A stretch of 64,000 nucleotides of DNA from Octopus vulgaris (Eukaryota): positions 197,656,001 to 197,720,000 of the forward strand of contig OX597814.1 of the NCBI GenBank assembly GCA_951406725.2, read 5' to 3'. Position 1 is the first letter of the stretch, and each line of letters begins with the position of its first letter. The notes under the pieces were generated by a model. That model worked only from the letters and a program-made list of their open reading frames with translations. It searched no databases and was not told the origin of the DNA. Positions 2,248 to 63,736 of this stretch are shown here, piece after piece. The translations under genes and the position numbers were made by a program.

Positions 2248-2302
<55 letters not shown>

Positions 2303-26857: not shown

Positions 26858-27245
26858 ATATTCATATTATAACATATATATATATATATATAAATTATAT
26901 CATATCATATATATGATTAATATTATATGTATATTCCTATATGTTATTATATATGTAATATATGCTTAGTACCATATATTCCTATGTATTTATATCATTA
27001 TATATTCATATAATGTTATATATTTATATTATTATATCATATATTCATAATATTATAACATATATATATATATATATATATATATAAATTATGTCATATC
27101 ATATATATGATTAATATTATATGTATATTCCTATATGTTATTATATATGTAATATATGCATAGTACCATATCCTGCTATATATTTATATCATTATATATT
27201 CATATAATGTTATATATTTATATTATTATATCATATATTCATACA
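26858..27245. repeat. AT-rich ~200-bp tandem duplication
   Basis: TAAATTAT..CATATCATATATATGATTAATATTATATG..TAGTACCATAT block occurs twice. Confidence 0.85.
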
Positions 27246-27703
27246 TATTATAAATTATATATTTATATTATATATTCATGTATATTGTATATTTGTATTA
27301 TTAACCTTCATAGTTTATAATTATCCTTCTCTTATTTTCGTGTTTAATTTTATGTTTCGCTTCATTCAAACAGCATCATTGTTCCATTTCATGCTTTTAT
27401 AGAAAATAAAATAACCAAATTTGTATTTAATTATAATTTTCCTCAATCTTAATTCCTATATAGAAAATAATATTTGAAAATACATGTCAAGATTATCCGT
27501 TACGCTCTCTCTCTCTCTCGCTACAAACGTGCATATCTACGGATTTATATGAATACAAATAGGGAAATATCTGAATAAAATTAATCAAATATAATCGTTA
27601 AAGCTTAAACAACCACGGAAAAACATAGGAAACTATAAATACTAGAATATTGAATTAATGTTGCGGCTTTGCGGCATGAATCACAAATCTTATGTGTACG
27701 CAC

Positions 27704-27763: not shown

Positions 27764-27891
27764 ACATAGGGTAGGACAAAAATCACGAAATCTGACTGCG
27801 TATGGCGAGGCGATCAGAGAGCATAATCTGGTGGTTTCAGCTGTTATATAAACTACAAGTTTATACTTCGTGACTTTTGACTCTCCCTGTA
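27764..27891. mobile_element. small Tc1/mariner-type MITE in a TA microsatellite
   Basis: CATAGGGTAGGACAAAAATCACGAA vs TTCGTGACTTTTGACTCTCCCTGTA imperfect TIRs. Confidence 0.65.
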
Positions 27892-27895
27892 TATA

Positions 27896-27942
<47 letters not shown>

Positions 27943-28053
27943 ATAATAAATATTAGGGAATAAATCCAAATTTACAGAAAAATCAGATTTAGGATTAAAT
28001 CCAATTTTATAGTAAAATATTATATAATATTATATAATATTGAAACTGATTTG

Positions 28054-28113
28054 AAAATCGGAAATCCACCTGAAGATTGTCATTAGACATGAAACAATTG
28101 TAGTGGCGGTTTT
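28054..28113 (+). ncRNA. minimal type I hammerhead ribozyme, probably from a Penelope-like element pLTR
   Basis: AAAAUCG-GAAAU-CCAC | CUGAAGA | U UGUC AUUA GACA U | GAAA CAAUUG UA | GUGG-CGGUUUU: full catalytic core, stems I-III, GUA cleavage triplet. Confidence 0.82.
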
Positions 28114-28183
28114 TACTTTTTATTAAAATTTTATGTATTGATTAAGTCTTTCCTTGTTTGTTTTGCAAAATAGTGGTTTTGTC

Positions 28184-28220
<37 letters not shown>

Positions 28221-28234
28221 GTATACATGTATAT

Positions 28235-28925
28235 ACATGTGTGACTGTGTGGGAAGAAGCTTGCTTTCCAACCACTTGGTTACGTGTTGAGTTCCACTAC
28301 GTGACACCTTGGCAAGTGTCTTCTACTATAGCCTCGGTTCGACCAAAGCCTTGTGAGTGAATTTGGTAGACGGAAGCTAAAAGAAGCTCGTCGTATATAT
28401 ATATATGTATGTATGTGTGTGTGTGTGTCTATATATATATATGTGTGTGTATGTATGTATGTATATATATAAATATATATATGTGTATATATTTATATAT
28501 GTGTGTATTTTGGGGGAGGGGGCCAGTCGATTACGTCGACCCCAGTACGCAACTGGTACGTAATTTATCGATCATGAAAAGATGAAAGGCAAAGTCGACC
28601 TCGGCGGAATTTGAACTCAGAACGTAATGACAGACGAAATACTGCTAAGCATTTCGCCCGACATGCTAACGTTTCTGCCAGCTCGCCGCCTTCCGCTATT
28701 TCAAATGTTTTTTTCTACCCTAGTCACAAGGCCCAAAATTTTGGGTGAGTGGGGGGACAGTCGATTACGTCGACCCCAGTACGCAACTAGTACGTAATTT
28801 ATCTATCCCGAAAGGACGAAAGGCAAAGTCAACCTCGGCGGAATTTGAACTCAGAACGTAAAGACAGACGAAATACTGCTACGCATTTCGTCCAGCGTGC
28901 TAACGATTCCGCCAGCTCGCCACCT
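28235..28925. mobile_element. SINE A 5' half (+, 28235-28395) and two SINE B tail-2 copies (-, 28506-28925)
   Basis: Family-diagnostic motifs. Confidence 0.88.
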
Positions 28926-28934
28926 AAGATTAAA

Positions 28935-31034: not shown

Positions 31035-31295
31035 CATTCATCATCATTGTTCGACCGTGGTCGAGACAATGGAATTTACCATGCTACGCCAGACTTCACG
31101 GTCCATCATGGCATTACGGAGGTCCTGTTGCTGGATGTCTGTATCCCTGGAGACTACATCAGGGTAGGAGAGTGTGCGCCCTCTGGTATTGCGAGTAGAT
31201 GGCTTCCAGAGGAGAAGAGTAGAAATTACTTCTTTTTCAGCTCTACAACAATGTCCAGCAAACTGGACTCTCCTACCTTTCACAATGACCAAGTG
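31035..31295 (-). mobile_element. RTE-clade LINE 3' end
   Basis: RRVQFAGHCCRAEKEVISTLLLWKP..LSYPDVVSRDT..AMMDREVWRSMV*, followed by a (TGA)n tail. Confidence 0.85.
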
Positions 31296-31297
31296 GT

Positions 31298-31497
31298 AAG
31301 GCGGCGAGCTAGCAGAATCGTTAGCATGCTGGGCAAAATGCTTAGAGGCATTTCTGAGTTCACATTCCACCGAAGTCGACTTTGCCTTTCATCATTTTCT
31401 GGTCGATAAAATAAGTACCAGTTAAGTGCCTGGTTGATGAAATCGACTTGTTCCCGCCCCCAAAATTTCAAGCCTTGTGCCTATAGTAGAAAGGATC
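31298..31497 (+). mobile_element. SINE family B tail-2 copy
   Basis: GGCGGCGAGCTAGCAGAATCGTTAG head; tail GCCTTGTGCCTATAGTAGAAAGG. Confidence 0.85.
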
Positions 31498-33128: not shown

Positions 33129-33751
33129 CAGCAACTTCTTACTTCCTACGTCGTCGTATCTTTGTTACTTGTGTTTTACATCTTCGGTATCATCCCCTTT
33201 TTTTTATTATTTTTCTCTAGTCTTTTTACCTTTTACTTCTTTCAGTCATTATACTCCGCCCATGCTGGAGTACTAACTTGAAGAGTTTTTGGTCGAATGC
33301 ATCAATACTAGTCCTTGATTTTTTTTTCTTTTTAGAGACTGGTACTTATTTTCTCTTATAACTGCGAAGAGAGCTTCCTAACCAATCGGCCATACAGCAT
33401 TTTTAATTTTGCTAATACATACCAAATGGAAAATGCTAATTAATATGTGTATATATTATATGTTCAAATAGGAATTAGAAGTAATTCGAGGTATATAAAC
33501 GAATTTGAACGCACATGCACGAGGTATTTGTGTTGCTTTTTTGTGTGTGTTCAAGGCGTAACAACCGGGAACTGACCAGACCTACCGGCTCGAAAATTCT
33601 TAAGCATGCGCAGGAAGGGTGGCGTCATTTGTCATCCAAAGGATTTCACCCTAGCAGCATTAGTTTTAGCGGGAAAAATAAAGTTGGATACTTTTAGAAC
33701 GTAGCACGTATGTATGTATGTATGTATGTATGTATGTATGTATGTATGTAT

Positions 33752-33781
<30 letters not shown>

Positions 33782-33785
<4 letters not shown>

Positions 33786-34100
33786 CTGCGTTGGCTGGGT
33801 CATGTCCTCCGTCGTCAACCAGGAGAATTCATCTACGAAGCAATTGCCCCAACTCCCCTTCATGGTTGGCGAAAGCGATGTGGTGGACAACGAAAAACGT
33901 GGCTGATGACAGTCAAGGCTGATCTGGAACCCAGCCTGGGCCCCCATGTCTACGGCGTCCGCCGCTGGAATAGGATTTGGTTGGGGATCACGCAGTTGTT
34001 AGCCTCAAATCGCCAGGCCTGGTTGGCGTTTGTGAGAGATGCAGCATTGAGGATGAATGAAGCCAGCTCAATCTACCCGGAGTGAATGCTGTCTGAAGAC
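33782..34100 (+). mobile_element. RTE LINE 3' end
   Basis: LRWLGHVLRR..GWRKRCGGQRKTWLMTVKADL..LASNRQAWLAFVRD. Confidence 0.9.
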
Positions 34101-62013: not shown

Positions 62014-62975
62014 TAGAATTCCTCTAATTTGAACGTGTGCTATGTTCAAGTTAGGGGACGCTGTTCAAATTTCGAAAAGAAAAGGTGTTAAAATATTACC
62101 TCGTACTTTTCCGGGTACCTCCACTAGTATTTAATGTATATATTAAGGTGAGTACATTATACATTTTAAAGAATCATTAAATATCATTGCTACAAAAACA
62201 TTGGAAATAAATTAATATTAAATAATGTTAGTTGTTAAATATTTATTACATAAATTACCTGCATCTAACAACCAGTCTAACAACTCTATACAATACTTTT
62301 ATTCAGTCATAGAATGAGCTTCTTCACTTTCGTTTCTGTCTTCATTTATCAAACTCACGGGGGGCTGCCATTGCATTCCTTAAGCGATCACGAAACTCCA
62401 CTATTTCCCGGTGCTGTAGTCTCTTTGTGATCATATCCTTTCGAAGTAACATTGCTTGCAAAACATAGTTATCACTAAAGTAAGGATTCCTTTCTAGAAA
62501 TTTAACACTATCTCCATAGACTTTTCTGCATTATCCCATGATATTTCCTCATTAGAGTATTCTTGGCCATTTTCATTAAGCTCCCTGTCGTTGTCGCTAA
62601 TTTCATGACCATTATTTTTTTTCAGGACATTGTTCAGTTGTTCCTTCATCTTGTCGCTTCCACATTTAAATTTCATTTGAAGAACAGTGTTTGGTTGGAA
62701 ATCGTATAGTTTCAAGAATATTTTGTACTCCAGATCTATTCTCTGCTTCTTTCATTTCAGGAGCACTAGACACTAGGTATAATTTTCCCCACGCTTTTGT
62801 TAATGTGCCTGTTCGAACCTGATTTCATGCACTTGAGAGGGAAGAAAATGGCATCTTTGATGGTCAAATTGCGTTGGAAATTGCTTATACTAACATTGCT
62901 ATTTATCATATTCATCATGAAATCATTTCTGTAGAAACATTTTAAGTTCCAAAAAAGGCCATATATTGAAAACAC
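62011..62975 (-). mobile_element. pogo/Tigger DNA transposon 3' portion
   Basis: TA-CAGTAGAATTCCTCTAATTTGAAC terminus; minus-strand GLFWNLKCFYRNDFM..LTIKDAIF (DDE_1 C-terminal) and acidic tail, frameshifted. Confidence 0.75.
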
Positions 62976-63736
62976 GAGTATATATTCCTATATGCAAATA
63001 CTTAGGTGTATACATATGTGTACATACATATGTATGTGTTTGTGTATATATGTGCGTATTATGTATGTTTATATAATACAGAAAGAGATACACTTATACA
63101 GATATATTAACAATAACGAAAGGAGGAGAAGAAGAAGAAGAAGAAGAGGAGGAGGAGAAAAGAAGAGAAGAAGAGAGGTGATGAAGATGGGAGAGGGAAA
63201 GATAATAAAGAAAATATAATAGAAAGACTACCTTCCTGCAAAGTTAAAAAAACAGAACGAAATAGGTTTTGGAAGACTGTCAATTGTTGAAATTCTTCAA
63301 ATATATTGAAAAATAGCACATGTTCTGGTGCTAATCGATAATTTGATTAAAAGGAACCCATTTTCAAGAACCTTTGAATATTTCTACCTGACAGTGAGCC
63401 AACTTGTGACCTACTTCATTTCAAATATATAACAACTCATTGAAAACAAGAAATAACTAGATTAAATTCCACGAGAAAACCCCCTCCTTTTTTTTTTCTT
63501 TTTGTCACATCTTACATTCCTTTCATACTTATATTCACAATCTTCCTCACCTTACACGTCGTCATACTCATTCTCACCTTTTCTTGTCATACTTATCGTT
63601 ATCAAATTTTGGAATAATTCTCTGGAAAAATTTAATTTTTGCGAAGTAGTTTGTTGCAAGAGTGACGCGTGTAAAGAACAACAAGAATTTCTCTTCGCTC
63701 AGTATCAACGCGATGCTTCACTGTCGCCAGACATTC

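Follow-up and report, generated by a model that had tools for sequence, protein, structure and literature searches.

A putative type I hammerhead ribozyme in a many-copy octopus repeat of likely Penelope-type origin

We report a type I hammerhead motif in a ~245-base copy of a many-copy repeat of the octopus genome, located in a 64-kb stretch of DNA that was analysed as a whole and is hereafter called the window. The copy is likely the 5′-truncated, partly inverted pLTR end of a Penelope-type retroelement, likely inserted into a TA/TG microsatellite, and its hammerhead, taken alone, is predicted to be a poor cutter; we put the probability of this overall reading at roughly 55%. The features on which it rests are collected in Table 1.

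Table 1. Features of the hammerhead-bearing repeat copy and its flanks, in window coordinates.
Feature	Positions	Strand	Remarks
(TA)n tract, left flank, likely insertion target	27890..27939	.	boundary with the unit's A/T-rich end (~27938-27950) not sharp
Segment B, inverted	27940..28031	-	family sequence that follows 28183 in other copies; membership shown for 28008-28031 only
Perfect 26-nt A/T palindrome at inversion junction	28016..28041	.	
Segment A	28041..28183	+	likely 5′-truncated, many-copy, non-coding
Helix I 5′ arm	28052..28069	+	extension 28052-28060, 5-nt bulge 28061-28065, core-proximal 4 bp 28066-28069
Hammerhead core C3-A9 (CUGAAGA)	28070..28076	+	no variant listed at 2% share
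Helix II and loop	28077..28090	+	4 bp on U10.1-U11.1 mismatch; 4-nt loop in this copy
G12-A13-A14-A15.1, palindromic helix III, U16.1, A17	28091..28102	+	from descriptor match and folding
Helix I 3′ arm including U-run	28103..28115	+	doubles as 3′ arm of competing hairpin 28071-28115
3′ segment, highest summed contig depth	28129..28183	+	~10 to >100x depth over core; no listed variant
(GT)n tract, right flank	28186..28219	.	

Judged by its sequence and helices, the motif is built like a type I hammerhead, and we regard it as a putative self-cleaving RNA. With numbering and consensus taken from PMC3088659, the type I consensus is found at C3 U4 G5 A6 N7 G8 A9, at G12 A13 A14, at the A15.1-U16.1 pair and at H17, and three helices surround this core, of which helix I is open (4 bp, 4 bp and 2 bp, the last becoming 8 bp in a dimer). 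Next to the core, 28066-28069 pairs with 28103-28106; beyond the one-sided bulge, helix I is extended by pairing of 28054-28060 with 28107-28113, including one G-U, and two more pairs are possible, out to 28052 and 28115. U28077 faces U28090 at the base of helix II (28078-28081 with 28086-28089), which is followed by GAAA at 28091-28094, an 8-nt palindrome at 28094-28101 and a GUA triplet at 28100-28102. The palindrome gives helix III 2 bp plus a tetraloop in the monomer and 8 bp between two molecules, and the hammerhead consensus places the predicted cut between 28102 and 28103. Stems, core, U-U, GAAA, palindrome and triplet all lie where the original prediction had put them, as both a sequence check and the descriptor scan confirmed.

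The label "minimal" that was attached to the motif is not entirely apt. The min-HHR of metazoan Penelope-like elements (PLEs) has a helix II of 6-8 bp, an unpaired base between positions 9 and 10.1 and a G10.1-C11.1 pair, whereas in the octopus motif helix II measures 4 bp, nothing unpaired follows A9, U-U stands in place of G-C, and there is a real 2-bp helix III; what it shares with the min-HHR is the short helix I and the palindromic 15.2-16.2 / loop 3 (PMC4209133). The U-U at 10.1-11.1 is reported as the best tolerated mismatch (PMC3088659) and a documented natural, active variant (PMC7229834, PMC3088659). U-U is also the state found in 75-96% of family depth, the remainder being A-U.

The motif stands far above chance. 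A type I descriptor scan of both strands of the 64-kb window returned one match at each of four stringencies, and this sole match is the 28054-28113 site; the scan found no second hammerhead on either strand. In shuffles that preserve dinucleotide content within 1-kb blocks, matches arose in 0/600 cases with Watson-Crick stems of at least 4 pairs, in 1/600 with G-U allowed and in 20/600 under loose settings with stems of at least 3, figures that are slightly favourable because the descriptor tolerated the 10.1-11.1 mismatch already seen in the motif. As an empirical control, we took 46 metagenome stretches that agree with the motif in the letters of core and helix III, and a helix I of at least 3 pairs accompanied none of them. 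The Infernal check against Rfam RF00163 came out negative: the gathering threshold was missed and the motif gave no hammerhead match even at E up to 10. Over the whole 64-kb window nothing reached the Rfam gathering score, and the miRNA and snoRNA matches below it were weak or lay on microsatellites.

To describe the repeat family we read the public assembled contigs of four runs (X1, X2, X3 and X5) out of 24 listed, aligned at 80% likeness. Part of the stretch is present in 21 of the 24 runs, from organisms A, B and C (labels unrelated to the segments of Table 1), none of them with half of its words. Contigs covering the bin from 28039 to 28183 number 321, 746, 542 and 48 in the four runs, and those of X5 include an exact 58-nt match, which does not count as a sign of expression, since it is a guess that X5 is an RNA run and contigs say nothing on transcription. 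Single 60-nt contigs occur at depths up to 1178, against 7-9 for others, and on this contrast, with the proviso that depth is not copy number, 28039-28183 is a dispersed many-copy repeat. Contig depth climbs toward the 3′ end in all four runs, a rise that fits 5′ truncation or else could reflect subfamilies differing upstream.

Within the ribozyme, the listed variants of the family fall at loop II, at a U-run and at position 28077. At a 2% share, the contigs of the four runs list seven substitution sites, namely 28077 and six within 28114-28128, and none of them falls on the 13 core positions or on the core-proximal paired positions of helices I, II and III. At 28077, U gives way to A in 25%, 4%, 4% and 6% of depth across the four runs; this A pairs with U28090, so that U-U is the majority state of the family and not damage to this copy. 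Among the 12 indels listed of 17, ten add 1-3 letters at loop II (28081-28085) and two extend the U-run at 28109; many family contigs accordingly have a loop II longer than the 4 nt seen here. Such a pattern is what conservation of structure would produce, but it does not amount to covariation: the contigs of the four runs list no compensatory double change. Low variation is also not special to the ribozyme, since 28129-28183 is likewise free of listed variants, and the aligned contigs were selected for likeness to the window sequence.

Exact-pattern scans of viral, genome and metagenome contig collections returned 0 copies of the family; relaxing the pattern in the metagenome contigs yielded 46 loci, and a full hammerhead was present at none of them. 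The window's commonest dispersed repeat, used as a control, likewise had 0 matches in viral contigs; the zeros in the contig collections therefore likely reflect an absence of host DNA there and not an absence of the family. Two weak metagenome blastn matches were set aside, one (L037) being the pattern itself and the other (L005) an A/T-rich stretch. Separately, at 28110 four contigs of run X2 carry a different upstream sequence; that sequence resembles the 3′ half of a divergent second hammerhead and hints at a sister subfamily sharing the 3′ segment.

The copy in the window is rearranged relative to the family. Between the (TA)n and (GT)n tracts the unit measures at least 244 nt (~245 bp), has 23% G+C and contains no ORF; the two ATGs of segment A run into stops after 4 and 2 codons. 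Behind 28183, loose letters are found on 11, 22, 17 and 1 contigs in the four runs. Following a 6-letter lead-in, the X1 loose-end consensus agrees by eye with the reverse strand of 28008-28031 at 23/24 letters, and that of X2 agrees at 23/24 with one gap, also by eye; the X3 and X5 loose ends agree with segment B over only ~11 A/T-rich letters, median loose lengths being 12-17 letters. A 16-mer shared by the loose ends occurs once in the window, where 0.03 occurrences are expected at one mismatch (3/100 shuffles); the sense segment starts 18 bases away from it. The loose-end match to the opposite strand of 28008-28031 indicates that, in the family, A (28041-28183) precedes B, and that the window holds reverse(B) then A. 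The remainder of segment B, 27940-28007, is assigned to it by continuity, as the contig alignment left out the repeat-masked 27940-28044 and gives no direct cover there.

At the A|B break ~4-7 family letters are missing, the palindrome lies at the other joint, and the inverted arm adjoins A without overlapping it, making this an abutting inversion. A search for TSDs found only an 8-nt microsatellite word, and the 64-kb window contains no second copy of the unit. The role of the (TA)n tract as target is suggested by the (TA)n bias of PLE insertions (PMC8557442). At nine other places in the window a TA tract runs directly into a TG tract, so that an empty compound microsatellite would be a plausible target. 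Within segment B, 27952-28021 consists of a 35-nt sequence repeated directly, its two copies being 74% alike, and segment A has near its start a short word that also occurs in segment B.

The inverted, microsatellite-flanked layout fits Penelope-like mobilisation. PLE insertions are 5′-truncated, often have an adjacent inverted copy, are biased to microsatellites and (TA)n and lack clear TSDs (Craig et al. 2021, PMC8557442). In work with a purified PLE protein, both strands of A/T-rich DNA were nicked and extended, and reverse transcription began within the RNA at a point downstream of the hammerhead (Frangieh et al., PMC11167929). The features of PLE insertions are seen here — likely 5′ truncation, an adjacent inverted segment, microsatellite flanks and no clear TSD — with the inverted arm abutting A and not repeating it. 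The motif further resembles the hammerhead variants of PLE pLTRs, which have a helix I of 4-5 bp, a small palindromic helix III suited to dimers and mostly solitary copies (Cervera and de la Pena 2014, PMC4209133), and O. vulgaris has 190 PLE families making up 6.83% of its genome (PMC13282606). Against a pLTR speak the architecture, which is closer to retrozyme hammerheads than to min-HHRs, the ~90 nt of segment B, longer than the usual 30-40 bp tail, and the abutting inversion, unlike the inverted repeat drawn for PLEs.

No Penelope ORF had been visible nearby in the original prediction, and this holds as far as Pfam sees: RT or GIY-YIG domains appeared in 0/368 scanned frames, taken from 640 stop-to-stop frames of at least 45 aa with shorter and low-complexity frames excluded. 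The scan gave three weak matches, all under cut-offs, and no host gene domain; Pfam is insensitive to decayed PLEs. A truncated copy would itself be without an RT/GIY-YIG ORF. What stands of the proposed pLTR remnant is the dispersed ~245-bp repeat with its hammerhead, in a layout suited to Penelope mobilisation; descent from a pLTR is likely. That no link to RT or GIY-YIG was seen, here or elsewhere, counts against it.

A sequence of events that would yield this copy can be sketched. RNA of the family, in the order A then B, would be made from tandem or full-length copies elsewhere, where the helix III palindrome would bring two hammerheads together to cut after GUA and so process the element RNA. 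A Penelope RT/GIY-YIG protein would then nick A/T-rich DNA; cDNA synthesis would be primed near the end of B, and priming by the opposite nicked strand, near the A|B boundary, would leave an abutting inversion. The product would be reverse(B) then A, an arrangement that is itself observed. A lone copy of this kind, with no partner in cis and favouring a hairpin, is predicted to be most likely a passive remnant, which would cleave no more than slowly, or in trans with other family RNA.

Folding bears on the last of these steps. The minimum-energy fold is a hairpin, 28071-28115, that pairs the core and helix II with the 3′ arm of helix I; its z is -1.32, with 24/200 shuffles equally stable. The monomer hammerhead lies 5.0-8.0 kcal/mol above the optimum (5.0 for the bare motif), and the pairing probabilities of helices I-III are at most 0.05 in all five contexts folded. 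As a bare motif, the double hammerhead comes within 2.5-3.1 kcal/mol of the dimer optimum and lies below two folded monomers, and with 13 extra bases of 5′ flank it falls 9.8 kcal/mol behind the optimum. With no partner hammerhead in the window and a competing hairpin burying the core, the lone copy is predicted to be a weak cutter, a soft prediction given that nearest-neighbour energies omit core and tertiary contacts. Since the hairpin uses loop II, the longer loops of other family copies might weaken it. Among animal hammerheads, those that share this 2-bp helix III are active as monomers: single copies cut at ~0.8 per min in coral and ~0.1 per min in mussel, and the axolotl HHR_Amex2 monomer is 22% cleaved in 1 h (PMC7229834).

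Among other explanations, it is possible, if on present evidence unlikely, that the family is a non-LTR retrozyme: a short non-coding tandem unit, transcribed, cut by its hammerhead into monomers, circularised and moved by Penelope proteins, of which the window would hold a solo, rearranged monomer. The likeness is close in several respects. Like the retrozyme hammerheads of axolotl (HHR_Amex2) and Mytilus, the motif is of type I, with a 4-bp helix II and a 2-bp helix III with tetraloop, and it shares with HHR_Amex2 specifically the U-U at the base of helix II; mussel retrozyme hammerheads, too, are without the usual loop-loop nucleotides (PMC7229834). Animal retrozymes are likewise low in G+C and non-coding, with units of a few hundred bases and common solo copies (PMC7229834; 10.64898/2026.07.22.740005), and the octopus unit, non-coding and of at least 244 nt, falls within their 170-400 nt range. 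Unlike them, it has only 4 core-proximal pairs in helix I, against the canonical 6, followed by the one-sided bulge, and the copy is inverted and truncated; no tandem copy occurs in the 64-kb window, and no contig joins B back to A, although such a joint would fall in the 27940-28044 region excluded from the alignment. It has been argued that retrozymes derive from pLTRs and are non-autonomous (Li, Clavereau and Pollet 2026, 10.64898/2026.07.22.740005), so that the retrozyme and pLTR readings share one machinery.

The remaining alternatives fare less well. The family might be a SINE-like passenger of a LINE (RTE, Dong-R4 or L1-Tx1), the inversion arising by ordinary twin priming by the LINE enzyme. 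On the minus strand reverse(A) is followed by B, a few letters having been lost between them, and this layout equals the geometry of L1 twin priming, and no paper joining twin priming to Penelope appeared in titles or abstracts. LINEs are abundant in octopus (PMC13282606), and a short (ATT)-like run closes the unit, yet the unit has no poly(A) tail and no TSD beyond the 8-nt microsatellite word, and type I hammerheads with palindromic helix III have been tied to PLEs and retrozymes (PMC4209133, PMC7229834, PMC6765202, 10.64898/2026.07.22.740005), all of which leaves a LINE passenger improbable. The earlier idea that the motif could cut any plus-strand transcript crossing it has weakened for the reasons given above, the lack of a partner hammerhead in the window, the hairpin that buries the core and the absence of a host gene domain from the Pfam-scanned frames, and no gene or transcript of the host was seen to cross it; such cutting is doubtful. 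The reading in which this copy is active and cleaves a plus-strand host transcript, either an intron or a long non-coding RNA, to the host's benefit or not, would be consistent with the intact core and stems, the well-tolerated U-U (PMC3088659), a helix II that is stable by itself (-2.9 kcal/mol) and could form first during transcription, and monomer cleavage by HHR_Amex2 (PMC7229834); set against the low predicted pairing probabilities, the lack of a host gene domain in 368/640 frames and the fact that this copy is one among many of its family, it has little chance of being right, and even the active PAc element yielded no RNA reads with ends at its cut site (PMC11167929). Least probable by far is an accidental match, in which an A/T-rich repeat happens to contain the core words and short stems. 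The missing Rfam match and a favoured fold other than the hammerhead agree with an accident, while the 0/600 strict shuffles, the missing helix I in all 46 chance core matches and the family indels, which enter loop II and spare the stems, argue against it.

We return to the Penelope-type reading and its wider setting. By itself the motif matters little, because type I hammerheads of Penelope elements and retrozymes are known at hundreds to >100,000 copies per animal genome, mussel and giant squid included; published counts include ~5,000 in mussel (PMC7229834), ~4,000 in coelacanth and ~9,000 in Xenopus (PMC4209133). Rfam RF00163, with 235 matches in giant squid (PMC6962438), covers the same class, topology and animal group without matching the octopus motif, and cephalopod ribozyme counts are likely low since Rfam misses this family. 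We found no description of an octopus hammerhead or retrozyme family in the literature accessible to us, the parts seen of the O. vulgaris repeat paper (PMC13282606) included and most subscription journals, Repbase/Dfam and the Cervera 2014/2020 supplements lying outside that coverage; the family appears to be undescribed for octopus. Octopus Naiad elements come from the same genus and share the preference for (TA)n insertion, yet are without a canonical hammerhead (PMC8557442). Assignment to the Naiads is unsupported: in the part of the Naiad supplement searched, 6/7 short words of the unit went unmatched and the seventh occurred once, elsewhere in the file (PMC8557442).

What gives the family value is the combination of many copies, a variable loop II and an abutting inversion, usable material on the role of the hammerhead in Penelope transposition. 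That role is an open question, given that the PAc hammerhead requires protein in order to cleave and that insertion in vitro can do without it (PMC11167929); the octopus motif also differs from PAc in having no ORF start inside it (PMC11167929). A bolder and rather unlikely proposal is that octopus harbours an Rfam-invisible retrozyme/pLTR family that keeps U-U, docks helices I and II by pairing between AAU of the bulge and AUU of loop II, and cuts in vivo, so that many copies start at the cut site. Pairing is conceivable between AAU of the bulge and the AUU present in most of the listed loop II variants. In X1, X2 and X3 (1, 1 and 2 contigs), one contig variant starts at 28103, directly behind the predicted cut, which could also be an ordinary graph branch. 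If the proposal were true, genomic copies of the family would directly record that hammerheads cleave during Penelope-type transposition.

Several further observations concern other DNA. The metagenome contig L029, animal-like DNA, carries at 2267-2301 (-) a min-HHR-like motif with an unpaired U after A9, a 5-bp helix II, the same 8-nt palindrome and no helix I; the contig has no long ORF and no blastn similarity to the window, and it is unrelated to the octopus motif. The window itself, whose host is likely an octopus, has a high A/T content and abounds in microsatellites and dispersed repeats. Immediately to the left of the hammerhead unit, between TA tracts, 27768-27888 holds two 22-nt inverted arms (77% complementary) 77 nt apart, which resemble a small MITE, and further upstream, at ~26870-27290, lies an A/T-rich duplication of ~194 nt (27002-27045 matching 27196-27239). 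Frames at 33705-34082 (+) and 31047-31388 (-) look by eye like the C-terminal end of RTE-type LINE proteins, and neither has a Pfam match. At 62769-62987 (-), a weak DDE_1 endonuclease match (E 0.00098, under the cut-off) possibly marks a decayed DNA transposon. A SINE-like dispersed repeat occupies 28504-28692, 28738-28926 and 15 other places, with 17 copies of an 80-nt core (families D13-D20), and a second dispersed family (D14, D19) is a source of spurious predicted proteins, its translation matching six proteins, four of them named Octopus.
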